Source: a virus (Duplodnaviria; Caudoviricetes). From it: a stretch of 64,000 nt of DNA. The DNA lies in IMG/VR virus record IMGVR_UViG_3300046092_000036, positions 1,224-65,223 of that record; one strand, given 5' to 3'. The notes below the pieces were generated by a model. That model was given only the letters and a program-made list of their open reading frames with translations. It did not search any database and was not told the DNA's origin. The position numbers and the translations under genes were made by a program. Below are positions 1,567 to 18,600 of the stretch, one piece after another; position 1 is the stretch's first letter; each line of letters begins with the position of its first letter.

Positions 1567-1791
1567 ATGAGTCTATTTAAACGCAAGTTTAATGTAGTTG
1601 AACCTAAACCTAAACCTAAAAGGAAGATGCAAGATATGGCTATTGATACTAACTCTAAGTTCGTATATACAGGCGGTTCTGATGTATTAAAAACCTTTAA
1701 GCGATATGGGTTTGTTCCACCTACTGAGTATCGTGATGATTACTTATTTAAGATTAACAGAGAAGCTAACCAAAGAGAGAATGATGAATGA
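1567..1791 (+). CDS. hypothetical protein
   Basis: 74 aa, AAGGAG RBS. Confidence 0.7.
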   Translation: MSLFKRKFNVVEPKPKPKRKMQDMAIDTNSKFVYTGGSDVLKTFKRYGFVPPTEYRDDYLFKINREANQRENDE

Positions 1792-2381: not shown

Positions 2382-2389
2382 CAATGTTA

Positions 2390-2522
2390 GGGGCATTTGA
2401 TTACGATAGAACCTATTAGCCTTGTAGATGCGAACGATTTTATTATCAGCTAGTTGCCCCGAGAATTCTTACGCTAGCTGAGTCCAAAATCTGAGGGGGG
2501 CAGATAATCTACATATCCCCCC
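2390..2522 (+). ncRNA. candidate structured, pseudoknotted intergenic element
   Basis: Four crossing complementary pairs (see findings); no family recognised. Confidence 0.35.
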
Positions 2523-2552
2523 AACCCCTCCCAAATATATTTTAAATCTCCC

Positions 2553-2580
2553 TTGACAAAGTCCAACACCATGTTAGTAT
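2553..2580 (+). promoter_or_regulatory. sigma70-type promoter, 16-bp spacer, probably leaderless
   Basis: TTGACA-N16-TAGTAT with extended TG; ATG 2587 is 7 nt downstream. Confidence 0.65.
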
Positions 2581-2586
2581 GGTGGC

Positions 2587-2907
2587 ATGGCATCTACTCC
2601 CGAAAAGAAAGTTAAAGATAAAGTTGTTAAGCTAATCAAGGCTTACGGCATTTATTATTTTTTCCCTGCAACACATGGATACGGCAGAAGCGGTGTGCCC
2701 GATATCATATGCTGTGCTAAGGGTAAGTTCGTTGCCATAGAATGCAAAGCAGGCAACAATAAGCCTACTGCGTTACAAGAAAAAGAAATGGCAGACATCC
2801 GTAAAGCGGGTGGATATGCCTATGTAGTAAACGAGGAGAGCCTAACATTGTTAGGTGCAACCTTAAGGAGCTTACTTGACGAGGAGGATGGCGATGGCAG
2901 ATGTTGA
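2587..2907 (+). CDS. VRR-NUC nuclease / Holliday junction resolvase-like
   Basis: PEKKVK..GVPDII....FVAIECKA...PTALQ PD-(D/E)XK motif. Confidence 0.9.
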   Translation: MASTPEKKVKDKVVKLIKAYGIYYFFPATHGYGRSGVPDIICCAKGKFVAIECKAGNNKPTALQEKEMADIRKAGGYAYVVNEESLTLLGATLRSLLDEEDGDGRC

Positions 2908-3349
2908 AATGAATAAAGGTGTTCAGATATTACTTGAACGCATGAGTAGTAACCCTGATGAGTTTGTGCCTAGCCTTAGGGGTGGGTATCAAAATAAATG
3001 GCGAGACATTCTTCTTTCCGTTGACATGCGGGTCAATGGGGGTAAGGACTACAAAGATCAGTTGCCGTTCCTAAACGACAAAGAGATCAAAGCCCTATGG
3101 GAAAAGATGCAGAGCTTGCGAGGGGACTTGTTCACTAAACAAGTTATGAATACTTTGTTAAGTGAGTCAGTAGAGCCACCCTTCGACTATGCCAACACCG
3201 CTACTGTTAGTGGGAGAGGAGCAGGTCTCAACATCTACCCTACTACTATAGTCCCTCCTGTTACTACCCTACCCTCTTCTCTTACTACTGCGGAACTATC
3301 ATCGCTTTCTCGGCAAGTTGCAAGTGGTAGCCCCAAAGGTTCATTTTGA
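2894..3349 (+). CDS. hypothetical protein
   Basis: GAGGAGG RBS at 2881; overlaps both neighbours. Confidence 0.7.
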   Translation: MADVEMNKGVQILLERMSSNPDEFVPSLRGGYQNKWRDILLSVDMRVNGGKDYKDQLPFLNDKEIKALWEKMQSLRGDLFTKQVMNTLLSESVEPPFDYANTATVSGRGAGLNIYPTTIVPPVTTLPSSLTTAELSSLSRQVASGSPKGSF

Positions 3350-5184
3350 AAATCTTTTGCATAGACTTTGAGACTTACTACTCTCAGACCTACTCGCTTA
3401 GCAAAATGACTACGGAAGAATACATCCGTGGCTCTGAGTTTGAGACGATTGGGTTTGCCATCCAATGTTATTCAAGACAAGAAGATGGTGGGGAACCTCA
3501 TTGGTATAGCGGTACTAAAGCACAATTAAAAACTGTACTGGATAAATATGAACTTGATAAGAATTTGGTCATTGCGCATAACGCTGTTTTTGATATGGCT
3601 ATCCTTAGTTTTATATTTGATATAAGACCTAAAGCCATTGTAGATACGCTATCCATGGCAAGAGCAATACATGGAACTGAAGTTGGTGGTAGCTTAAAAG
3701 CATTGGCTGAATACTATGCTCTAGGAGTTAAAGGCACAGAGGTGCTAAATGCGCTTGGTAAGCGTCGCATAGACTTTAATGCTGAAGACCTAGCCAAGTA
3801 TGGGGAATACTGTAAGAACGACGTGGTGCTTACGATGGACTTGTTTAAGAACCTAAGTGCAGACTTTCCTCCTACTGAGCTACGGCTGATAGACCTGACC
3901 ATCCGTATGTTTACTGAGCCTAGCCTTGAGTTAGATAAACCTTTGTTAGTTGCTCACTTGGAGTCGGTGAAAAAGAAAAAAGAAGATTTAATGAAACTGG
4001 TTGAAGCTAACCGAGATCAGATTATGAGCAACGACCAATTTGCTGAAGCATTAAAAGCTCTTGGGGCTACTCCACCTACTAAGATAAGTCCAGCAACAGG
4101 AAGGGAAACCTGGGCATTCGCTAAAACGGATGAAGGATTTAAAGCGTTGCTCGAACATGAGAACGGCGCGGTTCAAGCATTAGTATCAGCTAGGCTTGGA
4201 ATCAAATCCACTATAGAAGAAACAAGAACTCAACGCTTTATTGAGATAGCGGATCGAGGCTTACTACCTATACCACTACGCTATTATGCGGCTCATACAG
4301 GCAGATGGGGTGGCGACGACAAAGTTAATCTACAAAACCTACCAAGGAACTCCCCGCTAAAAGGTTCTATATGCGCATCAAAGGGCTACAAGATTATTGA
4401 CTCTGACTCTAGCCAAATAGAAGCAAGAACATTAGCGTGGCTGGCCGAGCAGAACGATTTAGTTGACGCATTTGAAAGGGGTGAGGATGTATACAAAATC
4501 ATGGCATCGTCTATCTATGTTAAGGCGCAAGAAGAAATTAGCAAAGATGAGAGGTTCGTCGGTAAGACAACAATATTGGGATGTGGCTACGGCATGGGGA
4601 GTGCGAAATTCCAAGCACAACTCAAGACTTTCAATGTGGAAATTGAGGATGGGGAAGCCAATCGTATTATCAAAGTCTATCGGGAAACTTATGATTGGAT
4701 ACCTCAACTTTGGAGAAAAGCAGGATTAGCTTTAGATGCCATCATCAACAATCAGACTATGTATTTGGGTCGGGCTGGAGTATTACAGGTTGAGGGCACT
4801 AAAGGCATTCGCTTACCCAATGGGTTGTATATGAAGTACCCGAATCTACGCAAGATACGCAACGAGCAGGGTAAAGACGAGTATGTGTACGACACCAAGA
4901 AGGGTAAAGCCGTTATCCCTAACAGGATATATGGCGGGAAGGTTATTGAGAATGTCTGCCAAGCCCTAGCCCGAATCATCATTGGTGAGCAGATGCTCCA
5001 AGTAGCCAAGAAATACAAAGTAGTAATGACTGTTCATGATGCGATTGCTTGCGTAGTACCTGAGGCGGAAGCAGAGACAGCTCAAGAGTATGTTGAGATG
5101 TGCATGAAGATGCGACCCAAGTGGGCATTGAAGTTGCCTCTAAGTTGCGAATCAGGTGTTGGTAATTCTTATGGAGAATGTTAA
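3346..5184 (+). CDS. DNA polymerase family A with 3'-5' exonuclease
   Basis: DFET and HNAVFD exonuclease motifs, TGRWGG..NLQNLPR, DSSQIEAR (motif A), R..GK..ILG.GYG (B), VHD (C); TTG start. Confidence 0.95.
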   Translation: MKIFCIDFETYYSQTYSLSKMTTEEYIRGSEFETIGFAIQCYSRQEDGGEPHWYSGTKAQLKTVLDKYELDKNLVIAHNAVFDMAILSFIFDIRPKAIVDTLSMARAIHGTEVGGSLKALAEYYALGVKGTEVLNALGKRRIDFNAEDLAKYGEYCKNDVVLTMDLFKNLSADFPPTELRLIDLTIRMFTEPSLELDKPLLVAHLESVKKKKEDLMKLVEANRDQIMSNDQFAEALKALGATPPTKISPATGRETWAFAKTDEGFKALLEHENGAVQALVSARLGIKSTIEETRTQRFIEIADRGLLPIPLRYYAAHTGRWGGDDKVNLQNLPRNSPLKGSICASKGYKIIDSDSSQIEARTLAWLAEQNDLVDAFERGEDVYKIMASSIYVKAQEEISKDERFVGKTTILGCGYGMGSAKFQAQLKTFNVEIEDGEANRIIKVYRETYDWIPQLWRKAGLALDAIINNQTMYLGRAGVLQVEGTKGIRLPNGLYMKYPNLRKIRNEQGKDEYVYDTKKGKAVIPNRIYGGKVIENVCQALARIIIGEQMLQVAKKYKVVMTVHDAIACVVPEAEAETAQEYVEMCMKMRPKWALKLPLSCESGVGNSYGEC

Positions 5185-5672
5185 TGAAGATACATGTGGA
5201 GTTTAATTCCATTGCAGAGATGGTTGGCTTTAGTAAGTTTGCGGGTAGTGACTTAGTACAAGTACCTCAATCTAAAAACCAACAACAATCAGAAGTTGCG
5301 TATAAGAACGCATACGAGAGAACAAATGCTAATCTTGAACGTGCCTATGAACGGCTTAGAGAGCTTTACGATAACCCAAAAATAAAAGCTATTATCGACC
5401 AAACGGAGATATCAAAGAATGCTAAAGCGTGGGATGAAAGAGAAAAGGTTAAAAAAGAAGCTATTGAGAACGACGAGAGGTTTGAGTTTAGTAATCGTGC
5501 TTTAAACATATTTAAATGCGAAAATATTAAAACGCTTAAAGACTTACTTAACTGCACAGAGAATGATTTATTTAGGCTACCTAACATGGGTAAACTAACC
5601 TTAGTTGGTATTAAAGAGGAGCTTGCTAAGGCTAAATTAAAACTAAAACAACCACCAAAGGCTAAGAAATGA
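5184..5672 (+). CDS. protein with RNA polymerase alpha C-terminal-domain-like domain
   Basis: C-terminal FSNRALNIFKCENIKTLKDLLNCTENDLFRLPNMGKLTLVGIKEEL parallels RpoA CTD [37 protein letters not shown]. Confidence 0.85.
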   Translation: MKIHVEFNSIAEMVGFSKFAGSDLVQVPQSKNQQQSEVAYKNAYERTNANLERAYERLRELYDNPKIKAIIDQTEISKNAKAWDEREKVKKEAIENDERFEFSNRALNIFKCENIKTLKDLLNCTENDLFRLPNMGKLTLVGIKEELAKAKLKLKQPPKAKK

Positions 5673-6439
5673 CTGACACAGTAGAAGCTAAAGATGTAAT
5701 TCCACACCTACTTGTAGCCACTCCGATGTATGGTGGTATGTGTAACGGACAGTACACAGCCAGTATGCTTCAAATGGTGACAACTTTTACGCAAGCTAAA
5801 GTTCCATTTCAATATGCTTACATGACGAATGAGTCCTTAATTACCCGTGCCCGCAATAGTTTAGCCCATGACTTTTTAGAGAGTAATTGTTCTCACTTGA
5901 TGTTTATTGATTCCGACATTGGTTTTAACCCAACAGACATTTTGCACATGATTAACGCTAACAAGGACATTATCTGCGGTATATACCCCAAAAAAGAAAT
6001 TAACTGGGTGGATGTAGCTAAAGCCGTACAAGCTGGAGTACCCCCACAGGATTTAAATAAACATACTGGGGCTTTTGTTGTAAACCTTGTGGGCGGTGCG
6101 GCTAAAGCTGAAGGTAAAAGCAACGAGCCTATGCAAATTGCTAATGGCGGTACAGGGTTCATGCTTATCCAACGCAAAGTGTTTAAGACTTTAATAGAAA
6201 AAGTACCTACATACAATAACGATATGTTCTTAGCCGTAGATACAGAACGTACGCCAAAAGTTATTCATGAGTTTTTTACTACAAGCATTGATAAAGACTC
6301 AGGTAATCGTCTGTTGTCTGAAGATTATCACTTTTGTAAAATTGCTAGAGAAGCTGGTTTTACAGTATGGGCAGCTCCGTGGGCTAATTTAGTTCATTGT
6401 GGAGCTTACAACTTTAGCGGACAGTTACCAAGAGTATGA
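5669..6439 (+). CDS. GT-A-fold glycosyltransferase-like protein
   Basis: VATPMYGG, ESLITRARN, LMFIDSDI (DxD), GTGFMLI, LSEDY.FC. Confidence 0.7.
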   Translation: MTDTVEAKDVIPHLLVATPMYGGMCNGQYTASMLQMVTTFTQAKVPFQYAYMTNESLITRARNSLAHDFLESNCSHLMFIDSDIGFNPTDILHMINANKDIICGIYPKKEINWVDVAKAVQAGVPPQDLNKHTGAFVVNLVGGAAKAEGKSNEPMQIANGGTGFMLIQRKVFKTLIEKVPTYNNDMFLAVDTERTPKVIHEFFTTSIDKDSGNRLLSEDYHFCKIAREAGFTVWAAPWANLVHCGAYNFSGQLPRV

Positions 6440-6921
6440 TGCCCTTTCATCCCCTTATACCTAAATCAGTAATTGCTGACGAGCTTCTTGATTTTGCTAT
6501 GGGTAGTGGCACTTGGCACTCGTACCATAACTTTGATGTGGTGCAAGTTCCGTTTGAGCTTGCTTATAGTGACCCAGTCATTGCTGGCATAGGGGCAAAG
6601 TATCCATTAGCAGTAGGTATATTGCGCTTAGACCCGTACACAACGTACGACTGGCATGTGGATACAAATAGAGGGGTGTGCATCAACATGCTACTCAATG
6701 ACGTAAAGAGTCAATGTCTATTCTCCGAGGGAGAAACGGAAGCAACTCACGTATTCCTAGAGTTAAAGTATCAACCAAAGACGCTTTACGTATTTAATAA
6801 TCAAGTGCCCCACATGGTTATTAACTATGCCCAAACTAGGTATCTAATGAGTGTGGAGTTTCAAGCTAACAAGAACGAGTTAACATACGGAAACTTTTTA
6901 AAAGAAATGGAGATAGCATGA
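6436..6921 (+). CDS. cupin / 2OG-Fe(II) oxygenase-like protein
   Basis: WHVD (HxD), distal H in QVPHMV, then R..MSVEF strand. Confidence 0.6.
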   Translation: MMPFHPLIPKSVIADELLDFAMGSGTWHSYHNFDVVQVPFELAYSDPVIAGIGAKYPLAVGILRLDPYTTYDWHVDTNRGVCINMLLNDVKSQCLFSEGETEATHVFLELKYQPKTLYVFNNQVPHMVINYAQTRYLMSVEFQANKNELTYGNFLKEMEIA

Positions 6922-7157
6922 CAACCTTTACAACTCAAGACAGAGTAGATGCAGAGATTACAGTAGAGCCAATCCCCTTTGCTGGTTTTGTTCAGCTACA
7001 AGATAAAGTGATATACAAAACATTTGAAGAATGGAAAACTGGTCAATGGCTAGAGGATGGCGAACCACGCACTAAAGCATATACAAAAGACGAACTATTG
7101 CTTATTGAAATGGGTTGGCAATATGGATTTGATGCAGGAAAGGCACAAGAGAAATGA
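6918..7157 (+). CDS. hypothetical protein
   Basis: MTTFTTQDR start, ATGA overlap. Confidence 0.7.
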   Translation: MTTFTTQDRVDAEITVEPIPFAGFVQLQDKVIYKTFEEWKTGQWLEDGEPRTKAYTKDELLLIEMGWQYGFDAGKAQEK

Positions 7158-7375
7158 ATGAGCAAGACTTAAGAGATTGCTTTGCTATGTTTACTTTGTG
7201 TGGAATTGTCATGCGTGGTATTGACGATGAAATCATAGAAGACGTAGCAATTAACGCTTATAAAATGGCAGATGCAATGCTTGAAGCAAGGAAAGAAAAA
7301 AATAACGGAGAAAAACTTGGAATCGCAGCAGTTAAACCTAAACGTAGATACCCTAAGAGACACTCAGACCTCTGA
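7154..7375 (+). CDS. hypothetical protein
   Basis: LRD.FA...AY..ADAML.AR motif common in small phage proteins. Confidence 0.75.
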   Translation: MNEQDLRDCFAMFTLCGIVMRGIDDEIIEDVAINAYKMADAMLEARKEKNNGEKLGIAAVKPKRRYPKRHSDL

Positions 7376-7520
7376 TGGCAAAAAGTTTTGTTCCAGTTGT
7401 ATGTTTATGAAACCCGAAGTTGGTGGAGAAGTTGTAGTAACAGCTAGGACTAGATGGCGCTGTGCCCAATGTAAAGCTAGGGCTTCAGTTCGTAGATACA
7501 GTAGCAAAGGAGGGGATTAA
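7272..7520 (+). CDS. small Zn-ribbon protein (start uncertain)
   Basis: FCSSC...WRCAQC. Confidence 0.55.
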   Translation: MQCLKQGKKKITEKNLESQQLNLNVDTLRDTQTSDGKKFCSSCMFMKPEVGGEVVVTARTRWRCAQCKARASVRRYSSKGGD

Positions 7521-7778
7521 ATGAAAAAAATATTATTACTTACAGGGTTCTTGGGAGCATGTTCATCGCCTTACGTAGACAATTCTAAGTTACCTGATAC
7601 TACGTTATTGGTAGAGAAAGAGCTTACACAAATGAGCCGAAACGCAGTTATCATTGCAGTTCAAGAGTGCGAGTCTAGCGGGCTTAGACCTGTTATGATT
7701 ATGTCTCGTCGTAAAATAAACGGATATTTGTCAGACGTTCCAGTTGATGTAACTTGTTCACCAAAATACGGTAGATAA
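7521..7778 (+). CDS. putative lipoprotein
   Basis: MKKILLLTGFLGAC lipobox. Confidence 0.7.
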   Translation: MKKILLLTGFLGACSSPYVDNSKLPDTTLLVEKELTQMSRNAVIIAVQECESSGLRPVMIMSRRKINGYLSDVPVDVTCSPKYGR

Positions 7779-8056
7779 TGATGATTCAAAGAATGCTTAA
7801 TAAGTTTATCCGTTGGGCTTTGTCTGTAAATGATGAGCCACAAGCTCCAAGCAGTACGGCAGTACCAACAATTCGTATTGGATTGGTTAACGGCTTAAAT
7901 GGTCGGTTGCTTGAAGTTGCAAGCCCCATACCAAACAAAAATAGCAAACATCATCTTTTTACTGACGACTGGACTTATGAGTTCTTTGTTGTTGCCGAAG
8001 GGCAAAAAGTTAGCGAAGCAATTGCCATGGTCATGCTTTTAAAGGGGATAGACTAA
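7778..8056 (+). CDS. hypothetical protein
   Basis: 92 aa, coupled to neighbours. Confidence 0.7.
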   Translation: MMIQRMLNKFIRWALSVNDEPQAPSSTAVPTIRIGLVNGLNGRLLEVASPIPNKNSKHHLFTDDWTYEFFVVAEGQKVSEAIAMVMLLKGID

Positions 8057-8206
8057 ATGATTGAAACATTAGTTAAACCCCAGCCTTTAGACAACGATAT
8101 TGCGGTGATAAAAATACTGCAATTGATGGGGCAATTAAGTTTAAACGATATGCAATATGTCTTGAAGGTAGCATTGCAAGTCTATGGGAAAGTACAAGAT
8201 AAATGA
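8057..8206 (+). CDS. 49-aa hypothetical protein
   Basis: MIETLVKPQPLDND...; GGGGA RBS; ATGA overlap with the next gene. Confidence 0.65.
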   Translation: MIETLVKPQPLDNDIAVIKILQLMGQLSLNDMQYVLKVALQVYGKVQDK

Positions 8207-8874
8207 GTGCATGGTCATATAGTAGCCTCAAGACATTCCAGCAATGTCCAAAAAAGTACTACCATTTAAAGGTTGCTAAGGATGTTGTAGATACTGGCAG
8301 TGAAGCTACTATATATGGCAAAGAGCTACATAAAGCGGCTGAAGATTACGTACGTGATAACGTACCAATACCACCCCAGTTTGCCTTTATCCAAAAAACC
8401 ATAGATGCGCTTAAGAACATCCCAGGTGAGAAGCATACTGAGATTGAACTAGGTGTAGCTAATAACGGAGGCAAACTTAGTGCCTGCGGTTTTAATGATA
8501 AGAATGCGTGGTATCGAGGCATTGCGGATTTACTAATCATCAATGGCGACGAAGGCTATTTGGTTGACTACAAAAGTAGTAAGAACGCCAAGTATGCAGA
8601 CTTAAAACAATTAGATTTATTGGCGGCGGCGGTGTTTACCCACTTCCCTGAGGTTAAGAGTCTTAAGTCTGCTTTGATATTTATAGTTAGTAATGAGTTT
8701 GTTAAAAAAGAACACAGTTCAATGCACAAGCTAGCTTACTTTGAGCATGTGCGATTTGACCTAGAACGGCTAGAGAAGGCTATGGAGACAGGGGTATGGA
8801 ACGCAGTATCTAGCCCTTTATGCGGTTGGTGCCCTGTTAAAACGTGCCATAACTATCGGGAGAGAAGAAAATGA
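8203..8874 (+). CDS. Cas4-like PD-(D/E)XK exonuclease
   Basis: WSYSSL..F.QCP, GIADL..VDYKS, CGWCPVKTC. Confidence 0.9.
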   Translation: MSAWSYSSLKTFQQCPKKYYHLKVAKDVVDTGSEATIYGKELHKAAEDYVRDNVPIPPQFAFIQKTIDALKNIPGEKHTEIELGVANNGGKLSACGFNDKNAWYRGIADLLIINGDEGYLVDYKSSKNAKYADLKQLDLLAAAVFTHFPEVKSLKSALIFIVSNEFVKKEHSSMHKLAYFEHVRFDLERLEKAMETGVWNAVSSPLCGWCPVKTCHNYRERRK

Positions 8875-9269
8875 GCTTTAGTAAAGGTATACCTCCAGGA
8901 ACTAAATTAGATCCAGAAAAAGGTCAAGGTGATACATACAGGGGTGAAAGAGAAGTGCATGAGTGCGCCTACCCTAGTTGCCGCAATAGAAAAATAAGCA
9001 GAAACGAAGATGCGGTATTTTGGGACGGTATACATATTAGTAGAGATAGCTTTGAAAATAACTTATCTCCCGTTGCAAAAATAGCGGCTATAGCTAACCC
9101 TACCGAGTATTTTGAAAAATATAATAGGTACTATGTAACAGTTGGCATGCATGCAGAATGTGCTGCGGAATGGGGCATGCACTTGATTAAAGACGCCCTT
9201 CAGAGCCATAATGTAGGTACTAAACTTCGTAAGGAAAAACCTCAAAATGCCATACGTGAACAAACCTAG
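8871..9269 (+). CDS. hypothetical protein (Cys/His)
   Basis: CAYPSC and HAEC motifs. Confidence 0.65.
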   Translation: MSFSKGIPPGTKLDPEKGQGDTYRGEREVHECAYPSCRNRKISRNEDAVFWDGIHISRDSFENNLSPVAKIAAIANPTEYFEKYNRYYVTVGMHAECAAEWGMHLIKDALQSHNVGTKLRKEKPQNAIREQT

Positions 9270-9531
9270 ACCATACAAAAAAGAATACGAACAGTATCAG
9301 GGTAAACCCGAACAAATAAAGAACAGGGCAAAGCGTAATAGTGCCCGTGCGGAGCTAATGAAAGATGGAAGGGTATCAAAAGGTGATGGAAAAGACGTCG
9401 ACCACTCAAAGCCTCTCAGCAAGGGGGGCACAAGTGCTAAAAGTAATCTCAAGGTTAAATCCGCTAGCAACAACAGATCGTTCAGCAGAAACTCAGATCA
9501 CACCGTTAAGCGGAATGTCTCGAAAAAATAG
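9247..9531 (+). CDS. HNH-endonuclease-like protein
   Basis: DVDHSKPLSKGG...NLKV....NR. Confidence 0.75.
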   Translation: MPYVNKPRPYKKEYEQYQGKPEQIKNRAKRNSARAELMKDGRVSKGDGKDVDHSKPLSKGGTSAKSNLKVKSASNNRSFSRNSDHTVKRNVSKK

Positions 9532-10909
9532 CATCTTAACGGACTATAACTGGCCTGGAAAATTTAAGCCGTTTGACCATCAGAAGTTAACCTCTGAGTT
9601 TTTAACATTAAACCGTAAGGCATTTTGTTTTAACGAGCAGGGTACGGGTAAAACAGCTAGCGTAATATGGGCAACAGACTACCTAATGAAGTTGGGTGTA
9701 GTCCGTCGTGTGCTGGTCATCTGCCCCCTGTCTATTATGAAGTCAGCATGGCAACAGGACTTGTTTAAGTTTGCTATCCACCGCACGTGCGATGTAGCCC
9801 ATGGTAGCCCAGCCCAACGAAAGAAAATATTTGCTAACAACGCTGAGTTTGTCATCATTAACTTTGATGGGGTAGATATTGTTAAACAGGACATCTTGAA
9901 CGGGGGCTTTGACATAATCGTAGTAGATGAAGCAAGTGCTTATAAGAATGCTCAAACAACCCGTTGGAAGACCCTCAGGGACATAGCTGGTCAAGTTAAG
10001 GGTATGTGGATGCTTACTGGTACTCCAGCAGCACAATCGCCTATAGACGCGTTTGGCCTAGCCAAGCTTATTAACCCAACTGGCACACCTAAATTTTATG
10101 GTCAGTTTCGTGACCAAGTTATGTATAAAGTTGGTATGTATCGTTGGCTACCTAAACCCCAATCCCAGCAGATTGTACATACAATGTTGCAACCAGCTAT
10201 TCGGTTTGAGAAAGATCAATGTTTAGACTTACCTGACGTTACCTTTGTTGAACGGGATGCACCCCTAACTGCCCAGCAAATGAAGTATTACAAATTGCTC
10301 AAACGGCAGATGACTATGTCAGCAGATGGGGAACAAGTAACTTCTGTAAACGCAGCCACTAACATCAACAAGCTACTGCAGATCTCTGGAGGTGCGGTGT
10401 ATACCGATACTAGAGAAGTCATAGAGTTTGATGTATCCAACCGATTACGGGTTATAGAAGAGGTTATTAACGAAGCTTCACATAAGGTCCTGGTATTTGT
10501 TCCGTTTACTCATACTATAGAACTACTAAACAAATACTTAACAGCAGCTAACATACCTTGCGCAGTTATTAACGGGCAAGTTCCTGTAAATAGAAGGCAT
10601 GACATAATCAACGACTTTCAAACAACAGAAAATGTTCGTGTGCTTATCATCCAACCTCAAGCGGCATCACACGGGTTAACACTAACTGCTGCTAACGTAA
10701 TCATTTGGTATGCTCCTATGACCAGTGTAGAAACGTATCTACAAGCAAACGCCCGTATTAACAGGCCTGGGCAAAAGAACCCTATGACCATTGTGCATAT
10801 TAAAGGAAGTGAAGTAGAAACAAAGTTATACAAAATGCTAAGTAGTAACATAGACAACCACACAAAAATAATTGACTTATATAGACAAGAAATCGAAAAT
10901 ATAGCTTGA
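9515..10909 (+). CDS. SNF2-family helicase
   Basis: EQGTGKT, VVDEAS, LTGTP, GLTL, QANARINRPGQ; start chosen at ATG 9515. Confidence 0.93.
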   Translation: MSRKNSILTDYNWPGKFKPFDHQKLTSEFLTLNRKAFCFNEQGTGKTASVIWATDYLMKLGVVRRVLVICPLSIMKSAWQQDLFKFAIHRTCDVAHGSPAQRKKIFANNAEFVIINFDGVDIVKQDILNGGFDIIVVDEASAYKNAQTTRWKTLRDIAGQVKGMWMLTGTPAAQSPIDAFGLAKLINPTGTPKFYGQFRDQVMYKVGMYRWLPKPQSQQIVHTMLQPAIRFEKDQCLDLPDVTFVERDAPLTAQQMKYYKLLKRQMTMSADGEQVTSVNAATNINKLLQISGGAVYTDTREVIEFDVSNRLRVIEEVINEASHKVLVFVPFTHTIELLNKYLTAANIPCAVINGQVPVNRRHDIINDFQTTENVRVLIIQPQAASHGLTLTAANVIIWYAPMTSVETYLQANARINRPGQKNPMTIVHIKGSEVETKLYKMLSSNIDNHTKIIDLYRQEIENIA

Positions 10910-10933
10910 CATTGTCAAAGTCATCTATATAAT
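10906..10933 (+). promoter_or_regulatory. sigma70-type promoter, 16-bp spacer; -35 inside palindrome TTGACATTGTCAA
   Basis: TTGACA-N16-TATAAT. Confidence 0.8.
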
Positions 10934-10961
10934 AAAAGTTCGTAGTTTGAAGGAGCTAAAA

Positions 10962-11360
10962 ATGATTGCAGATATTCCAACAGATAAACTCGCCGAAGTT
11001 TACATAAAGATTCGTGACAAACGAGCAGAATTAAAAGAGCAGTATGAAGCACAAGACGAAGGCTTGAAAGCTCAACAAGAAATGCTAGCGGAGAAGATGC
11101 TAGATATATGTAGGGACAACAACGCTGACAGCATCAAAACACCAGCAGGGACAATCATTCGTAAAGTGGATACACGGTACTGGACGACGGATTGGGATTC
11201 TATGTATCAGTTCATTGAAGAACACGACGCATACCCCCTGCTCGAGAAGAGGATACATCAAACTAACCTCAAGCAGTTTCTCGAAGAGAATCCCGAACTG
11301 TTACCTGCTGGTTTACAAGCAGACAGAAAATACACCGTGGTCGTTAGAAGGAGCAAATAA
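10962..11360 (+). CDS. conserved coiled-coil phage replication-module protein
   Basis: AAGGAG RBS; YIKIRD..., SIKTPAGT, DWD..Y.FI, LLEKRI. Confidence 0.8.
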   Translation: MIADIPTDKLAEVYIKIRDKRAELKEQYEAQDEGLKAQQEMLAEKMLDICRDNNADSIKTPAGTIIRKVDTRYWTTDWDSMYQFIEEHDAYPLLEKRIHQTNLKQFLEENPELLPAGLQADRKYTVVVRRSK

Positions 11361-12247
11361 TGAGTAACATTTCTATTTTTCAACAAAAAACAGCACCAGT
11401 AGCAGGTCGTGAAGTTAGTGAGCTATCTAAGTCATTAGGTGCAACTTCTAGTACATCCCGTCGTATCACTATGGCTAAGGGTGTATTCCGTCGTATCGTT
11501 AATGGTAAAGAAGCGGGTAAGATTAAAGACGGTCACATGAACGTCATCGTTGTCAATGCCTTACCTAAAGTATCTCGTCAGTTCTACGCATCTGCGTATG
11601 ATCCTGATGCGGCTCCTACCCTGCCAGACTGCTGGTCAAACCTAGGTGATGTACCTGACTCTAAAGCTGCTAACACACAATCAGCAAACTGCGCTAGCTG
11701 CCCACAGAACATTGATGGCTCAGGCACTAATGGCAAAGGTCGTGCATGTCGTTTTAACCGCCGTATAGCAGTAGTACTCGAAGGTGATATGAGTGGTGAT
11801 ATTTATCAGTTCAACATTCCAGCTAAGTCATTGTTTGGTAAAGGCACTGGTAACACACATCCGTTTGAAAGTTATATTAAGTTCTTGCCAGCTAACGGAG
11901 AAAGTATTGACCGCATCGTTACTCAGATTTCTTTTGACGAAGAGGAGACTGCTGATGTATTGAAGTTCACACCAGTCCGTCACTTAACTGATGAAGAGAT
12001 TGATGTAGTAGAAGCTGCTCAGGGAACACAAGAGGCTAAGACTGTAATTCAGTTAACTGTAGCTCAGCAAGATGGTGTTGTTAAATTACCCCCAGCAGCT
12101 AAAGCAGCGGCTCCTGCGTTCAAAGAAGAACCTGAAGTTGAGGTAATAGAAGAGCCTGTAGTTAAACGGTCTAAGAAAGCTGAAGCGCCTACTGCAGCGC
12201 CAAAAGCAAATTTAGCTGACGTTGTCAGTGCTTGGTCAGATAGTTAA
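11360..12247 (+). CDS. putative single-stranded DNA-binding protein
   Basis: PDCWS, CASCPQN, GRACR motifs; Ala/Pro/Glu-rich tail; lies between helicase and primase. Confidence 0.6.
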   Translation: MSNISIFQQKTAPVAGREVSELSKSLGATSSTSRRITMAKGVFRRIVNGKEAGKIKDGHMNVIVVNALPKVSRQFYASAYDPDAAPTLPDCWSNLGDVPDSKAANTQSANCASCPQNIDGSGTNGKGRACRFNRRIAVVLEGDMSGDIYQFNIPAKSLFGKGTGNTHPFESYIKFLPANGESIDRIVTQISFDEEETADVLKFTPVRHLTDEEIDVVEAAQGTQEAKTVIQLTVAQQDGVVKLPPAAKAAAPAFKEEPEVEVIEEPVVKRSKKAEAPTAAPKANLADVVSAWSDS

Positions 12248-12249
12248 TA

Positions 12250-12507
12250 ATGAGTTACGGCTATAGTGCCAAAACTATTCAGTTAAACAAAAGAGCCGAT
12301 AGTAGTAGGCTCGGAGTTGCGTTGGGTAGGTCGGCTATCAAACTAGGCATATCAGTTGCAGATATAGCTGGTACGCTTAAAGTTAGCCGTCAAACTATCT
12401 ATAACTGGTTTATAGGTTCTTACAACCCTAAAGATACGTACACCAAGTCAATAACCAGCTTATTGAATAGTTTTAACAAGCACATTAAAGAAACAAATTT
12501 AAAGTAA
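12250..12507 (+). CDS. Cro/XRE-type HTH protein
   Basis: ISVADIAGTLKVSRQTIYNWFIG. Confidence 0.8.
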   Translation: MSYGYSAKTIQLNKRADSSRLGVALGRSAIKLGISVADIAGTLKVSRQTIYNWFIGSYNPKDTYTKSITSLLNSFNKHIKETNLK

Positions 12508-12526
12508 GCCTTATCACTGGAGGTTT

Positions 12527-12551
12527 GGGGGGAGTAGTCCCCCCTTTTTTC
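12527..12551 (+). terminator. intrinsic terminator/attenuator before primase
   Basis: GGGGGGA-GTAG-TCCCCCC followed by T-run. Confidence 0.6.
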
Positions 12552-12569
12552 CCTAACAACGAGACAACG

Positions 12570-15410
12570 ATGGCAAATATTGACCTATTAAACAGAGTGC
12601 AAAGCCCCGATGGGTGGCTTACTGTGCTCGGCTTAAAGGGAAAGTCTGCTATACAAGAGCTTGTTCAAACACGGGAAGAATTCGATAAGTATGTAGCAGA
12701 GTTTTTAGGAAAAGGTAGGGATGTTTATTTTGGCGTAGCTAAGTTTGAAACCAATTTAAACCGCAAAAAGGAAAACGTAAAAGACCTCAAATCCTTTTGG
12801 ATTGATTTAGATTGTGGCGAGTCTAAAGCAGAAGTAAATCAAAAGACAGGTCGCCCTGATGGGTACATTGACCAAGCTACTGGATTACAAGAGCTACAAA
12901 AGTTTTGCAAACTAATCGGATTACCCAGACCGTTACTTGTTAACTCAGGTAGAGGCATCCATGCGTATTGGCCCCTTACTAATCCTATAAGTAAAGAGGA
13001 ATGGGAACCAGTTGCTAATCGTTTGAACGAGTTATGTGTATTGCACAACCTTTATGTCGATGCAAGCGTATTTGAAATAGCCCGTGTTCTTAGAGTACCA
13101 GGCACACTGAATTTTAAAGATAATCCACCTAAGCCAGTAGAGCTAATCAGTGATGCACCAGATGTAGAGTACGAAACATTTAAAAATTTACTAGGCGTAA
13201 AAGAAGCGCCAACAAAACCTTCCGCACCAAAAGAATTAAGTGAGTTGCAAAAAGCTATGGCTGCTAACACCGTATCACGGTTTAGTAAGATTATGATTCG
13301 CAGTGCCAACAATGAAGGTTGCGCACAGCTGTTGTACCAGTATCAAAACCAAGACTCTGTATCCGAACCTATGTGGTTCAATGCCTTATCTATTGCTCAC
13401 CGTTGCGTAGATAGAGAAACTGCAATCCATAAGATTTCAGAACGGCATCCTGAGTATTCACCCGAAGATACAGAGAACAAAGCTAGTCACACTGCGTTTG
13501 CACAACGATGCGCTACGCTTGAGAAAAATAACCCAGGAGGTTGTGATGGTTGCCAATGGAAGGGTCGTATCGGTTCTCCCATTGCATTAGGTAGAGAGAT
13601 AGTAAAAGCAGAAGAGACAGAGGTTCACGAGACCGAAGAGTTAGATGACTTTGCAACACACAAGATACCGTCTTACCCACACCCTTATTTCCGTGGTAAG
13701 AATGGTGGCATTTACATAACTGTTAGCAGCGATGAGGAAACAGAACCTATCTGCGTGTATGAGCACGACTTGTATGTAGTAAAGCGCATGAATGACCCTG
13801 ACCCTTCTGTTGGTGAGTTAGTACTGTTACGTTTGCATTTACCCCAAGACGGTGTACGAGAATTTACAATACCCCTTTCTACGGTGGCGGTTAAAGAAAG
13901 ATTACGTGAAGCTCTTTCTACCAAGGGTGTGGCAGGAATGCCAAAACAAATGGATCAATTAATGGCGTTCTTAATGACGTTCATTAAAGAATTGCAATAT
14001 AAAAAGAAAGCGGAACTTATGAGGACACAATTTGGCTGGGTAGATAAAGACAGCAAGTTTATTATTGGTGATAGGGAGATTAACAAAGATGGTGTATTCC
14101 ATAGTCCCCCATCCACAGTTACACAACAGTTTGCAGAAAGCATGCACCCTATGGGGACACTGGAGAAATGGAAAGAAGTATTTAATATGTATGGGGCACC
14201 TGGTTTAGAACCCCATGCGTTTGCTGCGCTTACTGCGTTTGGCGCGCCGCTTCTTAAATTCACTGGTCATAGCGGAGCAATCATAAACTTAATCCACAAA
14301 GATTCGGGCACGGGTAAGTCTACTGCGTTGTATATGTGCAATAGCGTGTACGGACACCCTGATAGGTTGGCAGCTATTTGGAAAGATACCCTAGCGGCTA
14401 AGGTACTGCACCTAGGCATTATGAATAACCTACCGTTTACTGTGGATGAGATTACCAATCTTACCCCTGCGGACTTCTCCACCCTAGCATATAGCATGTC
14501 ACAAGGTCGTGGTGCAAACAGGTCTAGGTCAGACAAGAACGAGATGCGTATTAATAAGACTACTTGGCAGACTATGTCTTTAGCCAGTTCAAACGCTAGC
14601 TTCTATGAAAAAATGGGTGTGCATAAGACTAGTCCCGATGGTGAGATGATGCGTTTGCTGGAGTATCAAATTCACCCTTCTAATATTATTCCTACACACG
14701 TAGCTAAGCACATGTTTGACCACCAGCTCAAGGAGAACTACGGGCATGCTGGAGATATTTACTGCTCCTACCTAGTCAACAACCTAGAAGATGCTAAGAG
14801 CAACATGTTAGCTATCCAACAGAAGATTGATAAGGAGATGCGCCTAACTAACAAGGAGCGTTTCTGGTCTGCAGTTATTGCTTGTAACCTAACAGGGGGT
14901 TTGATTGCCCGTATGCTAGGCTTGCACGACTACGATATGAAAGCTATCTACGCATGGTCTATGCAGATGCTAACCACAGTACGTCAAGATATTGCACCGC
15001 CAGCTAATAACTCTTCTTCTGTAATTGGTGATTATATTAACCGTCATATTCAAAACATGTTGGTTGTAAACAATGATACAGACAAGCGTACTCATATGCA
15101 CTCGTTGCCGATACAAGAGCCACGGGACAAGTTGTATATCCGTTACGAGCCTGATACAAAGCTAATGTATATCGTTGCCAAGCACTTTAAAAAGGATTGC
15201 GTGGAGTCACAAGCGTCGTACAAAGACACATTGCATGAGCTTAAGACCAAGGGCATCTTCCTTAAGGGCGACACCAAGCAGATGTCAAAAGGCATGCGGG
15301 TTACATCACCTGGGGTCTATGCGTTGATATTCGATTGCTCTGTGGCAGACTTTATTGATATAGATGCGATGGTTGCGCCTATAGTTGAGAATGCTAGTAG
15401 AGAAGATTAG
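12570..15410 (+). CDS. primase (AEP/RepB-like) fused to DUF927 helicase
   Basis: WIDLDCG, NSGRGIHAYW, RVLRVPGT, Cys cluster, SGTGKST, DEIT. Confidence 0.88.
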   Translation: MANIDLLNRVQSPDGWLTVLGLKGKSAIQELVQTREEFDKYVAEFLGKGRDVYFGVAKFETNLNRKKENVKDLKSFWIDLDCGESKAEVNQKTGRPDGYIDQATGLQELQKFCKLIGLPRPLLVNSGRGIHAYWPLTNPISKEEWEPVANRLNELCVLHNLYVDASVFEIARVLRVPGTLNFKDNPPKPVELISDAPDVEYETFKNLLGVKEAPTKPSAPKELSELQKAMAANTVSRFSKIMIRSANNEGCAQLLYQYQNQDSVSEPMWFNALSIAHRCVDRETAIHKISERHPEYSPEDTENKASHTAFAQRCATLEKNNPGGCDGCQWKGRIGSPIALGREIVKAEETEVHETEELDDFATHKIPSYPHPYFRGKNGGIYITVSSDEETEPICVYEHDLYVVKRMNDPDPSVGELVLLRLHLPQDGVREFTIPLSTVAVKERLREALSTKGVAGMPKQMDQLMAFLMTFIKELQYKKKAELMRTQFGWVDKDSKFIIGDREINKDGVFHSPPSTVTQQFAESMHPMGTLEKWKEVFNMYGAPGLEPHAFAALTAFGAPLLKFTGHSGAIINLIHKDSGTGKSTALYMCNSVYGHPDRLAAIWKDTLAAKVLHLGIMNNLPFTVDEITNLTPADFSTLAYSMSQGRGANRSRSDKNEMRINKTTWQTMSLASSNASFYEKMGVHKTSPDGEMMRLLEYQIHPSNIIPTHVAKHMFDHQLKENYGHAGDIYCSYLVNNLEDAKSNMLAIQQKIDKEMRLTNKERFWSAVIACNLTGGLIARMLGLHDYDMKAIYAWSMQMLTTVRQDIAPPANNSSSVIGDYINRHIQNMLVVNNDTDKRTHMHSLPIQEPRDKLYIRYEPDTKLMYIVAKHFKKDCVESQASYKDTLHELKTKGIFLKGDTKQMSKGMRVTSPGVYALIFDCSVADFIDIDAMVAPIVENASRED

Positions 15411-15585
15411 TTACAACGTTAACTGGAGAAATTTCAAAGTGGGGTATTCGATTTTTATACCCTGCATTGACACCAGCGCAGCTAAACAGGATATCCTACG
15501 TGTTACAAAAAGATTGAAAATAGAAGTAATTACAAAACTAGTTATTGAAGAAGGAGTGAGGGGGTTACGCATCTGGAGGATTTAA
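15391..15585 (+). CDS. small hypothetical protein
   Basis: W..F.VG.SIFIPC...GLRIWRI; ends the replication operon. Confidence 0.7.
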   Translation: MLVEKISYNVNWRNFKVGYSIFIPCIDTSAAKQDILRVTKRLKIEVITKLVIEEGVRGLRIWRI

Positions 15586-15593
15586 CCTATACT
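15565..15593 (+). promoter_or_regulatory. candidate promoter for sRNA
   Basis: TTACGC-N17-TATACT. Confidence 0.45.
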
Positions 15594-15598
15594 CGAAC

Positions 15599-15680
15599 GT
15601 AGAACAACTCCTTGTTGTTTCTCCTCGGAAGTTAGCTCCTTCCAATCCTCTTAAACCCCGCCTAGTGCGGGGTCTTTTTT
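15599..15680 (+). ncRNA. candidate anti-Shine-Dalgarno sRNA
   Basis: Three CTCCT segments, two hairpins, terminator; 11-12-nt complementarity to four phage RBSs. Confidence 0.55.
15655..15680. terminator. terminator between convergent operons (likely bidirectional)
   Basis: ACCCCGC-CTAGT-GCGGGGT-CTTTTTT. Confidence 0.85.
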
Positions 15681-18600
15681 ATCTCTTGTCTACAGAACGA
15701 GTGCCCTCTACCAAAGGATAAACAAATGGAGCTTGTGCATCTGTTACAGATAAGCCTTGGGACGATTTGCTACGACGCTCTTCACGAGACTGTAGAGACT
15801 TACTAATTGTTTCACCGTCGATAGGTAGCATAGAATTTTTAGTATTAAATTTGTCTACTTGTTCTAGTATTGAATCAACTTTATCGTCGTCATCATTACG
15901 TACTGCTATATCTAAACGATTAAGCAACGTAGCTTTTTCTTTTTCTATCTTTGCAACTATTTGTTTAGCCATAAAGTTAGACTTTTGTATTTGTGCTACT
16001 TCAGTATTTCCAAACCCTAAAGCTTGCGCAGCTAATTTACCTGTTGTGTAAAACTCTGCATTCACAATCTCGTCACCTTTAGGGGTAGTAGCACCTTCTT
16101 TACTTAATCTATATGAAGTCAAACCGCCTCTAAGCCATGCTGGAGCAAGCTTCTCAAAGCCTCTATTTATCTGCCCATTATTAAAATCATCAAAGGCGCC
16201 CGCAATATTTGAGCCTATGCTACCTATAGGACCACTAAAACCAAATATAAAGTTTTGGAAAGCCTCACGAGAAGTATTTCCAGGGCTATCGTCTCTAAAC
16301 CACAAGCCATCTAACGAAGTAGATGCACCAAGATTTAGACCTGTAACTGCAGATAGTGGACCCATTTCAACCCCACGAGCCAATGTTTTAGCATCTTCTT
16401 CACTTAGTCCTAAAGCGTCAGCCAAGTTACTGTCGGGGCCAAAATAGCTAGGAATAAAGGAGTTTCTAAACCATAAATCTAAGTTACGTTTACCAAGTGG
16501 ATTTCCTTCGTCATCTTCATCATAGTCTTCATCTTCTTCGTCACGCATTAACTCACGCACACCTTCTGATACACCCATAATAAAGCTATATAAAGGTAAT
16601 CCTGTAACACCAGCAAACAAACCAGTCATTCCTAAAGTACCAAAGAATTTAATTGCTGCTTCTTTCTTCTCGTCTTTATTTAAGAACGGCAACATACCAT
16701 AGAAGTTACGTACTAAGTACGATGTCATCTGTAGTGGGTAAGTTAAGAATTGTGTAGCTAACTTAGCCCCTGGACTGCCCTTCATTAATCTAGGCTTGTT
16801 GTACTGTGTGTAGTTAAACAAGGCATCATAAGTTAACTGCAAAGCTTTTTCAGTAGCAGCATCAAAAGCAGCTTTATCATCCATACCCTTTTGTTTGTAA
16901 TCAGCGTAGGCTAATTCAAAAGACGACATAAACATAATCTCACGAGAGATACGCTCAGCGTGGTGGAATGCACCACCCATAAAGTTAAATACGCCCCTAG
17001 TCCCCCTACTAACTATATTATGATACTGCCCAGTAGGGACATCAGCCATTGCGGTCATATCTCCCGCATAGGTAGACATAAATATATCTTTGTCGTTAGC
17101 AAAGTTCCAAGCATCTTTTAACGCTTTTCTATACGCTGGGTCTTTGTGCTCAGTAACATACTTAGAGTCACCAATAGAAGGTTGACCCCAATTAGTAGTT
17201 ATATTTCCATCGGCATCTGTTTTAGTTGTGCTAAATTTATTCCATAGTGCACTGTATCTAGCAGCAGTTGCAGTAGCTTTTCCTATACCAAATTCAGCCC
17301 CAAGAGTAGGTAAACCAACAATAGGTAGCTGTGTCATCTGTATTAGTGCCGACTTAGGAGAAGTTAGCAACCAATAGAACACAAACTTGTTACCCGTTGC
17401 AGCGACTTTATTCCAGTCTATGCCTTCATCAGGGATGCTAGGTGTAATCTCATCAAGCGCTCTAGCACTAATTTCTCTAATAAGCACAGATAGTTTTAGC
17501 TTGTCTGGGTTTTGTGCTATCTCCGCATATGCGGCTGCTATGCCGTTACGAATTTTATCTGCATAACTTAGACGGGCTAGTTGATTAGCAGCTGTATGTT
17601 GGCTAGTAATAAAGTTGCGGATTGCGTCGGCGCTAAAACCAGTCTTGCCTTGGCGGTGTACAAACTTACGACGGATGTCTTTATCAGGCAAGGTCATTAA
17701 ATACATCTGATAAATGTTATCCTTAACAGCCTCTATATCCGACATTTTATTGCTATCCAGCATTGCAAAGATTTCTTTAAGCATGTCGCTAGACTCAACA
17801 TGCTTTTCTCTTAACTTGCGTATATCATCACCAACGTCTATATCCCCGTCTTCAATCATTTTAGCTAAGCTACGGTTAGTACCACCAGCTTTATTAAGTT
17901 CAGCAACACGGGCTTCAACCGCAGCATTACGGGCGGTAGCACTTTCAAACATGTAGAACTCACCACTCTTGCCCTTACCTTTGCTAAACCAGAAGTTACC
18001 ATAGCGCATTAACGGGAAGTAAATATCTAACAAGCGGGCTTCTTGAAAAGTCTTAGTAATAGCTGCAATCAATTTGCCCTTTGGAGTAGACGCATCATTA
18101 ATATCTCCAGGTACGTTAGAAGATGCAATCTTTTCTTTTAGTAGCTTTTCATGTAGATCAAACGTTTGCTTGTAGCTATCCCTAGCCATTTTGTATATAG
18201 CATGCCCTTCGCCTTTCCCAAACTTACCTAAGGCATCCCAACCGAGCATGGTAAATTTTTCACCTGTAATAGGGTTATCTAGAACACCACCTTCGTACAA
18301 TAGTTTTATAGCTGCGGTGCGTTCAGTTCTTTGTTTTTTAAGATTAGGTAAAGTCTTAGGGTCGGTAGACGGGTTAAGAATATCGTTTTCTATACGTTTT
18401 AAAGCAGGGTCATTTTGTATAGCAGTTGCTGCATCAGGGTGTTTAGCAGGGTCAACTTGTAACAACGTAGCTGCATTTATTACATCAGCCAATGCTTTGC
18501 CACCTTTTTTATATTTTTGATTAAAGTTAATCCAAGCAGGGACTTTTTCTGCTAGTTCACGAATCATACGAGTGCGCATACCAGCCATATCATCTACGGC

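Follow-up and report, generated by a model that had tools for sequence, protein, structure and literature searches.

The uncultured tailed phage behind IMG/VR record IMGVR_UViG_3300046092_000036 has a genome of roughly 65 kb (65,223 bases, rated 100% complete in IMG/VR), and we analysed a stretch of 64,000 nucleotides (nt) corresponding to bases 1224-65223 of that record, referred to below as the window. Genes on the + strand occupy positions 1-15,600 and about 56,000-64,000 and constitute the early and replication modules, and the virion module between them is encoded on the - strand. At the junction where the + strand early genes and the - strand late genes converge lies a short element, positions 15600-15680, that probably encodes on the + strand a trans-acting small RNA (sRNA) of about 80 nt, directed as an anti-Shine-Dalgarno (anti-SD) RNA against the ribosome-binding sites (RBSs) of the phage's own early genes. 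The locus comprises the following parts, with the hairpins as stem-loops (SL) of the predicted fold:

12525-15410 as listed, + strand: open reading frame (ORF) of a DUF927 primase/helicase, 5' of the element
15439-15585, + strand: gene of a 48-residue protein, directly upstream; its last codons contain the -35-like bases
15588-15593, + strand: -10-like hexamer TATACT, 3 nt past the stop of the small ORF, read directly
15600-15680, + strand: predicted sRNA of about 81 nt, its 5' end placed from the -10 box and its 3' end from the terminator T-run
15602-15608/15614-15620, + strand: SL1, a 7-bp 5' hairpin with loop UCCUU
15621-15626, + strand: linker CUCCUC, unpaired in the minimum-free-energy and centroid folds
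15627-15643, + strand: SL2, GGAAG/CUUCC with loop UUAGCUC, the most conserved part and near-invariant in alignment A1
15644-15654, + strand: linker AAUCCUCUUAA with a fourth CU motif, single-stranded in the predicted fold and variable among relatives
15655-15680 (stem 15655-15673), + strand: intrinsic terminator, a 7-bp GC stem followed by a T-run, oriented for the + strand
15679-15681, - strand: stop codon of a convergent 2124-residue gene (LPD39 domain), overlapping the terminator T-run

About 95 non-coding bases separate the small ORF from the late gene. Three elements of the original prediction for this site, namely the TATACT hexamer at 15588, some 80 nt ending in an intrinsic terminator, and a first CTCCT-type segment exposed in a hairpin loop, were all found in place. 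The sRNA folds with a z-score of -3.5, and none of 200 shuffled sequences folded equally well. Nowhere else on the + strand of the window do three CTCCT motifs fall within 56 nt; the remaining CTCCT clusters lie on the - strand, antisense to coding sequence. The loop and 3' arm of SL1 are complementary to the RBS of a DUF3310 gene, the SL1 3' arm and CUCCUC linker together (15615-15625) to that of an AAA-ATPase gene, and the SL2 segment 15631-15642 to GAAGGAGCUAAC. We rejected the possibility of a small peptide encoded within the sRNA, which contains no ATG and has a single TTG frame, 7 codons long and without an SD sequence.

Conservation and structure of the element

With the neighbouring primase as query, 219 relatives were confirmed, and the best 80 of the 219 loci were kept. 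Every kept locus with at least 250 nt of downstream sequence carries the element at the same place, L044 excepted. A pattern scan yielded 49 distinct variants, the window included, and the elements of L037 and L057, missed by the pattern, were recognised by eye. After the small ORF, the shared layout comprises a -10-like hexamer, 59-98 nt with at least one and usually at least two CU motifs, and a + strand terminator. The hexamer stands at the equivalent place in 49/49 variants (TATACT in 39, TATAAA in 5, TAAACT in 3, TATATT and TACACT in 1 each), and in all of them both this box and the T-run after the stem are on the + strand. Nearly all variants have a CU-rich single-stranded motif next to the first hairpin, on its 3' side. 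The best conserved stretch is the core UCUCCUCGGAAGUUAGCUCCUUCC, which retains 81-93% nucleotide identity at loci where the flanking DNA is no longer alignable and the C-terminal part of the primase is just about 50-63% identical in protein.

A covariance model of the core architecture, R1, scored 88.6 bits at the window element and gave a single match, at the position expected, in 72 of the 82 related sources searched, with two weak extra matches. The ten sources without a match are L044 and nine loci of divergent layout, in which UUAGCUCCUU lies in the first hairpin loop or is absent. The exact 17-mer of SL2 occurs in 65 IMG/VR stretches, among them many further SL1 and linker variants; at least four of the 65 have contexts without a flanking CU motif and look unrelated. 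Homologues of the 48-residue ORF were detected by tblastn in the relatives, with identities down to about 40-50%, and also in L044, which lacks the sRNA; Pfam and PHROG were both searched with this ORF, and neither matched.

Folding each sequence separately gave a 5' hairpin in 40 of the 41 distinct sRNA bodies (terminator excluded), built from 25 different 5' arms and with a median z-score of -2.35. Nucleotides of CU motifs were unpaired in 413 of 547 cases in these folds, compared with 1092 of 1928 for all nucleotides. RNAalifold on a raw MAFFT alignment missed SL1, the stems being out of register, and per-sequence folds together with a model-fitted alignment (A2, 56 distinct rows) were used instead. 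In A2, two-sided changes are seen at 13 of 18 pairs, among them all 6 pairs of SL1 and 5 of 7 in the terminator stem, and 91.4% of cells pair as opposed to 77.1% in shuffles. The covariation score was 0.339, compared with 0.104 in shuffled alignments (0/500 reached it) and at most 0.08 for slid partners, the latter being the fairer control since A2 was fitted to the model, which favours structure, a limit of the method that tells against the strength of this evidence. At L037 and L039, AGUAAG...CUUACU replaces the usual SL2 stem and is itself a compensated stem. Compensation of this kind indicates the structure of a single-stranded nucleic acid, and the element has, on a model-fitted alignment, the covariation-supported secondary structure expected of trans-acting base-pairing sRNAs.

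Target-coupled complementarity to ribosome-binding sites

In the window, the element is perfectly complementary to four RBSs over 11 or 12 nt, and an imperfect match reaches further at a fifth site:

1935-1946, + strand: RBS of the DUF3310 gene (1953-2381), 12 nt, candidate target
62253-62263, + strand: SD and spacer of the AAA-ATPase gene (62267-63334), 11 nt, candidate target
59092-59103, + strand: RBS of a 67-residue protein gene (59105-59308), 12 nt, candidate target
10949-10959, + strand: SD and spacer of a 132-residue protein gene (10962-11360), 11 nt, candidate target
2866-2890, + strand: region upstream of gene 2894-3349, imperfect match to the core with 19 pairs, 2 mismatches and 1 bulge (read by eye), additional candidate target

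The four perfect pairings, put forward in the original prediction, are exact reverse complements, and the shorter matches it had listed were recovered: the one at the RBS of the major head gene spans 9 nt, and those at 60036, 11360 and 40106 span 8 nt each. The 132-residue product carries the PHROG label 'minor head protein' and a weak Pfam resemblance to DUF7307/Mu Gam-like proteins; a family search with the 67-residue protein gave no match. The duplex at 2866-2890 was assigned -36.4 kcal/mol by RNAduplex, the best of 146 RBS windows. This site is present in the L050 record and absent from the L006 record, and the RBS of the orthologous gene contains AGGAGCTAA in G003 and G010. The RNAduplex ranking of all RBS windows served to flag this site only; it was noisy, with purine-rich or spurious internal starts at the top in most genomes.

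Chance was assessed by holding the CU cores fixed and shuffling their flanks. Four RBSs matched over at least 11 nt were reached by 7 of 5000 shuffles and, when the target set was widened, by 1 of 2000. Two weaker measures, two RBSs at 12 nt or longer and four RBSs at 10 nt or longer, were reached by 66/5000 and 189/5000 shuffles, respectively. The targets at 59092 and 10949 have one RBS sequence in common and hence are not independent. Given these weaker measures and the shared sequence, the window taken alone is suggestive, and the weight of the argument comes from the relatives.

Besides the window, eight further phage records were scanned whole. Seven of these records have their longest RBS-associated match at the RBS of a + strand gene with an early or replication role; G018 has none above 10 nt. 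At the AAA-ATPase RBS, the match extends over 18 nt in G008, 12 nt in G009 and 11 nt in G003, which also has 10 nt at two more RBSs, the DUF3310 homologue among them. At the RBS of the 132-residue protein gene (132-aa RBS below) it covers 13 nt in G008 and 12 nt in G006, and G017 has four RBSs matched at 11-12 nt. Away from start codons, equally long matches occur in G009, G010 and G016. RBS matches exceed the flank-shuffle null in 7/9 genomes, the number of shuffles (of 2000) reaching the count of RBSs at 10 nt or longer being 99 for the window, 49 for G003, 9 for G008, 63 for G006, 22 for G016, 35 for G017 and 18 for G018. The record G016, from which locus L144 derives, belongs to a relative in which SL1 and the linker differ; it has 63,344 bases, carries direct terminal repeats, is rated 100% complete and would serve well as another reference genome of the family; the best matches of its sRNA are the RBSs of a 107-residue and a 151-residue protein gene.

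The AAA RBS varies among the relatives along with the sRNA of the same phage and has a different sequence in each of several lineages (AGGAGAAACAA, AAGGAAAAGCA, GAAGGAGCTACA, ACGACGAAGGAGCTAACA). Its match to its own sRNA measures 11 nt in the window, 11 in L038, 18 in L074, 12 in L078, 13 in L060 and 10 in L187. When RBSs were permuted among 8 lineages, the total obtained with own partners was reached in 2 of the 40320 arrangements (exact test); with 12 lineages, it was reached in 1/100000 by match length and 19/100000 by duplex energy. The 132-aa RBS matches its own sRNA over at least 8 nt in 18 of 28 lineages (permutation: 186/100000 by length, 3426/100000 by energy), and over 10-12 nt in all five of a further set of records (L144, L162, L187, L163 and L136). 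Both partners have changed together in L037/L057 (TAAGGAGCTAGC with GCTAGCTCCTTA, 12 nt), in L046 (AGGAGCGAC with GTCGCTCCT, 9 nt) and in L060/L064/L074 (13 nt). The DUF3310 RBS is identical in the L006 and L050 records, both of which have the window-type SL1; in the L038 record, the RBS of the DUF3310 homologue, AGGAAAAGCA, matches its own, different sRNA over 10 nt. A comparison of sRNA arms with RBSs in related phages had been proposed as a check of the original prediction, and it finds the AAA and 132-aa RBSs changing together with the sRNA, though in part of the lineages. For these two RBSs, complementarity is kept through changes on both sides, as in trans-acting sRNAs, and this pattern is not universal. 

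The RBSs themselves give a hint of a regulon. In 3 of 6 genomes, no 3-mer follows GGAG at RBSs more often than CTA, and in G008 CTA occurs at 8 of 73 RBS sites compared with 4 of 272 sites elsewhere; canonical pairing with the 16S rRNA tail does not account for CTA.

Transcription units and alternative explanations

Three further features define the transcription units of the element and of its candidate targets:

10906-10933, + strand: promoter of the 132-residue protein gene, TTGACA-16-TATAAT, perfect and sigma-70-like
62139-62167, + strand: promoter of the AAA gene, TTGATC-17-TATAAT with TG, 10/12
12527-12544, + strand: terminator-like hairpin and T-run, separating the operon of the 132-residue protein gene from the sRNA

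The AAA, 67-residue and DUF3310 targets lie 13-18 kb from the element and belong to other transcription units, so an RNA acting on these RBSs must do so in trans. The AAA and 132-residue protein genes, the two targets with the best support, each have a strong promoter of their own. The hairpin at 12527-12544 falls within the first 20 bases of the primase ORF as listed, so the true primase start must be further downstream; the operon of the 132- and 295-residue protein genes probably ends at this hairpin. Transcription of the sRNA is probably driven by its own sigma-70-type promoter with TATACT as -10 box, an origin favoured by the conservation of this box in non-coding DNA in 49/49 variants. 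Of the two marks of a separate transcription unit, the terminator is clear; on the promoter side, a -35 sequence matching in at least four of six positions was found in just 24 of the 49 variants, and a TGn extension in 6. As a separate observation, the promoters at 57681-57709, 58581-58609 and 62139-62167 resemble one another, each having TTGATC, a 17-nt spacer and TG, followed by TATACT or TATAAT; the TATACT of these early promoters is also the -10 hexamer of the sRNA.

A number of results weigh against an anti-SD sRNA of this kind. Any RNA bearing CUCCU pairs with any SD over 5-6 nt, and the background of matches is about 7 nt. The original prediction had regarded the SD core matches as expected by chance and the extra nucleotides at four RBSs as the signal. 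This held for the four RBSs at 11 nt or longer, which are rare in flank shuffles, and did not hold for the longest match in the window (12 nt, reached by 201/2000 shuffles) or for five RBSs at 9 nt or longer, which are ordinary. The count of RBSs at 10 nt or longer was not unusual in G010 (1017/2000) and G009 (739/2000), and the longest match of G018 was reached by 939/2000 shuffles. The SL1 arm emphasised originally differs between close relatives. For the AAA RBS, the own match is at the background level of 6-8 nt in 6 of 12 lineages; such values were obtained for L057 (6), L056 (7), L005 (6), L144 (6), L162 (7) and L163 (8), and likewise for L058. In L005, both the AAA RBS and the sRNA have changed without compensation. 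The four added lineages alone, an out-of-sample set, gave no significance for this RBS (8396/100000), and with 6 nt in L144, 7 in L162, 10 in L187, 8 in L163 and 7 in L136 the prediction largely failed at the AAA RBS in the five further records. The 132-aa RBS matches over just 4-6 nt in 9 of 28 lineages. These counts and permutations are further limited by thresholds that were set after viewing the data, by RBS sets that include spurious starts, and by permutations that ignore relatedness. With regard to transcription, the -35 match in the window is weak (3/6) and lies within coding sequence, a promoter scan of the window made no call at the TATACT site, and, the -35 being weak and within codons, an RNA cut from the 3' untranslated region (UTR) of the primase mRNA is a possible origin. 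Lastly, Pseudomonas phage Rollin has no matching intergenic gap at the junction.

These results bear on four other explanations. One is that the element belongs to the primase operon as its conserved 3' UTR with terminator, protecting the mRNA 3' end or aiding termination between the converging early and late modules and having no function in trans; this appears unlikely to us. Its CU-rich stretches would then be incidental or bound by a host protein such as S1 or Hfq. The location is the one to be expected of such a module, exactly at the convergent junction and directly after the last + strand gene, with the sole strong + strand terminator of the junction at its end, and the weakness of its own promoter, with a -35 of 3/6 in the window, would be in keeping with it. 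A stabiliser, however, needs no specific loop or linker sequence, yet UCUCCUCGGAAGUUAGCUCCUUCC is best conserved; moreover, the arms match RBSs beyond the flank-shuffle null in 7/9 genomes and change with the AAA and 132-aa RBSs, and the -10-like hexamer is kept in 49/49 variants although it lies in non-coding DNA. We also judge it improbable that the sRNA acts mainly on host mRNAs, either as a general SD blocker that shuts off the host or on specific targets, so that the phage matches are a by-product of SD-like sequence, an explanation compatible with the favoured one. Every strong SD would be a pairing partner for anti-SD motifs, the families that the element weakly resembles in Rfam, all below the gathering score, are chromosomal anti-SD sRNAs, and lambda PreS and VP882 VpdS are described as acting on host RNAs (PMC12197685). 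This would leave unexplained the lineage-specific matches of 11-18 nt to the phages' own AAA and 132-aa RBSs. A search of one genome per species (185,579 species) found the 17-nt core in 17 stretches, none in an sRNA-like context; as a clue to the host these matches were discarded, since their contexts are unrelated and about 70 are estimated by chance in 596 Gb.

In icaR, the 3' UTR and 5' UTR of one mRNA pair in cis. For the window, a comparable folding of the 3' UTR back onto the 132-aa RBS within one long mRNA is very improbable: the 132-residue, 295-residue and primase genes, the small ORF and the element are indeed all on the + strand downstream of the promoter at 10906-10933, but the terminator-like hairpin at 12527-12544 intervenes, and the remaining three targets belong to other transcription units at a distance of 13-18 kb, so that an anti-SD 3' UTR and its SD are not found on one mRNA. 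There is likewise little probability that the - strand or the DNA itself is the functional entity, as a late-operon 3' end presenting AGGAG/GGA (for instance a CsrA-type sponge) or as inverted repeats for a recombinase, replication or packaging. The late 2124-residue gene ends within the terminator tail, the hairpin is followed by only three T in that direction, so late transcripts may read through, and the SL1 loop of the window reads AAGGA on the - strand. Against this, every variant has its -10 box and T-run oriented for the + strand, the - strand loop motif has been lost in others (ACGAG in L002-type loops), the compensated stems indicate structure in a single-stranded nucleic acid, and repeats 11-12 nt long spread over many RBSs are unlike recombination sites. 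The reading that we favour, a modular trans-acting anti-SD sRNA as originally proposed, is supported by the conservation of the element, its covarying hairpin, the unpaired CU motifs and the co-changing AAA and 132-aa RBSs.

Relation to known systems and proposed mechanism

Judged by sequence comparison, the element represents a new family of phage sRNAs, the mechanism of which would be of a known kind, that of the trans-acting anti-SD antisense RNAs. Rfam gave no family at gathering score in the window and eight related loci (142,403 bases). Membership in RF00519 (suhB/MmgR) was rejected at 25.9 bits versus a gathering score of 41 (E = 0.0069, at 15613-15687), and the resemblances to anti-hemB (19.7 bits) and the Betaproteobacteria toxic sRNA (17.1 bits) were also below threshold. 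DNA similarity to isolated phages was sought for 15300-15800 and none was found, and the closest isolates by primase are only 24-30% identical.

The chromosomal anti-SD sRNAs used for comparison, namely the cuckoo family, MmgR/suhB (RF00519), anti-hemB, the Betaproteobacteria toxic sRNA and AbcR1, are bacterial genes. Cuckoo RNAs are described as 2-4 adjacent hairpins with the anti-SD loop motif CCUCCUCCC and stems that vary with compensation (PMC4615179), and AbcR1 as using two separate modules for many targets (PMC4152367). The phage element shares with the cuckoo sRNAs the variable, compensated stems around a kept anti-SD motif, as seen in its 25 5' arms and all 6 SL1 pairs. In contrast to them, its loops read UCCUU and UUAGCUC rather than CCUCCUCCC, and its motifs, CUCCU and UUAGCUCCUU, lie half in linkers instead of loops.

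Among phage RNAs, c4 is processed from the operon that it regulates, with regulator and target in the same transcript. In P1 and P7, its complementary sequences, likely in loops, are described as blocking the RBS of the phage's own ant mRNA (PMC12197685). The element resembles c4 in being a phage-encoded RNA directed against an RBS of the same phage. It differs in that c4 serves lysogenic immunity and one operon, whereas the candidate targets here are several unlinked early and replication genes with their own promoters; the hairpin at 12527-12544 separates even the nearest target from the element, so regulator and target are not co-transcribed as in c4. The element also has its own -10 box and terminator and bears no sequence relation to c4. 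With lambda PreS, VP882 VpdS, DicF and AsxR/AgvB, it has in common that these are small, terminator-ended, base-pairing RNAs of phages or prophages; the targets described for them in PMC12197685 are host mRNAs or sRNAs, not a set of the phage's own RBSs. The logic of early-mRNA shut-off is reminiscent of phage T4. There, the repressor protein RegA and the endoribonuclease RegB act at the SD/start region of many of the phage's own early mRNAs and end their translation, whereas here RNA would be the recognising molecule.

The start-associated sequence (SAS) of Cluster K mycobacteriophages is reported to be a conserved RBS extension beyond 16S pairing, present at many non-structural genes, with its binder, 'either RNA or protein', given as unknown (PMC3203893), as it still was in the text of a 2024 article (PMC11373665). 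The GGAGCTA(A) at several RBSs of the present phages is a weaker analogue: the SAS comprises 13 near-invariant nt in 13-19 copies, whereas the extensions here are shorter, fewer and lineage-specific. In Mycobacterium phage Adephagia, a single reverse-oriented SAS is found between genes 92 and 93, in an unannotated gap (L214 28610-28725, about 58609-58724 of the record). Its + strand sequence makes up the 10-nt loop, CCUCCUAUCC, of one long hairpin, beside which lies a second (z = -6.5). Conservation of this region extends over 131 mycobacteriophage records, and 6 divergent phages retain the two hairpins; the anti-SAS loop of Adephagia is itself conserved. In DarthP, the hairpin loop differs and the SAS is unchanged in 13 copies; since the loop does not follow the SAS, there is no covariation, and Cluster K lends no support to the reading proposed for the window element. 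An anti-SAS RNA in Cluster K is a lead rather than a result.

Some other features were noted in the window. The palindrome CTAACAWTGTTAG occurs in 20 copies within 506-2854 and 56202-63513, compared with 0 expected (100 shuffles). All copies are in + strand early regions, often tens of bases upstream of an RBS or beside promoters, and could be operators for a phage regulator or a recurrent RNA hairpin. At 58316-58360, after a gene for a 175-residue protein, a C-rich stretch CCCCUGCCCUCCCC is followed by a terminator much like that of the sRNA. Model R1 matches weakly there (22.7 bits, E = 0.0018); this could be another 3' UTR with anti-SD character or simply a terminator that looks alike. Immediately following one palindrome copy, three tandem CATTTCCGC units with a 9-nt period occupy 58393-58420, where the stretch that was read ends. 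A tRNA scan of the window found none.

For the sRNA at 15600-15680, we infer transcription from the -10 box, pairing in vivo, and repression as the direction of the effect. The exposed CU segments, which resemble the 3' end of 16S rRNA, would seed pairing with SD sequences, and pairing would then spread, without mismatch, into the adjoining stem arms over 11-12 nt in the window phage and up to 18 nt in relatives. Covered in this way would be the SD and spacer of chosen early and replication mRNAs, those of the AAA ATPase, 132-residue, 67-residue and DUF3310 genes. 30S subunits would be kept off, and translation of the target genes would be lowered or ended. More tentatively, and as a possibility that we would not put at even odds, the RBS extensions of early genes not read by 16S rRNA (GGAGCUAA and its lineage variants) might constitute a private translation code, the complements of which are displayed by one sRNA so that the early set is shut off or dosed. 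Such a code would be the RNA counterpart of T4 RegA and RegB and might extend to the SAS of Cluster K.

Phage sRNAs described so far are few, and those covered in PMC12197685 target either host RNAs or, in the case of c4, one immunity operon. Searches of the literature by words, with the reach that word searches have, returned no phage sRNA with anti-SD modules directed at several early-gene RBSs of the same phage. The at least 49 variants amount to a natural mutagenesis series, comprising arms and RBSs that have changed together as well as lineages in which pairing was lost, and they raise a testable question, whether one RNA times or doses early-gene translation in a phage. The sRNA also suggests what type of molecule might bind conserved RBS extensions such as the SAS. 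For uncultured viral contigs, comparative genomics can reveal regulatory RNAs together with their targets without knowledge of the host. Under a private translation code, RNA arm and RBS would evolve by paired changes, and a whole set of early genes would be controlled at the step of ribosome binding.

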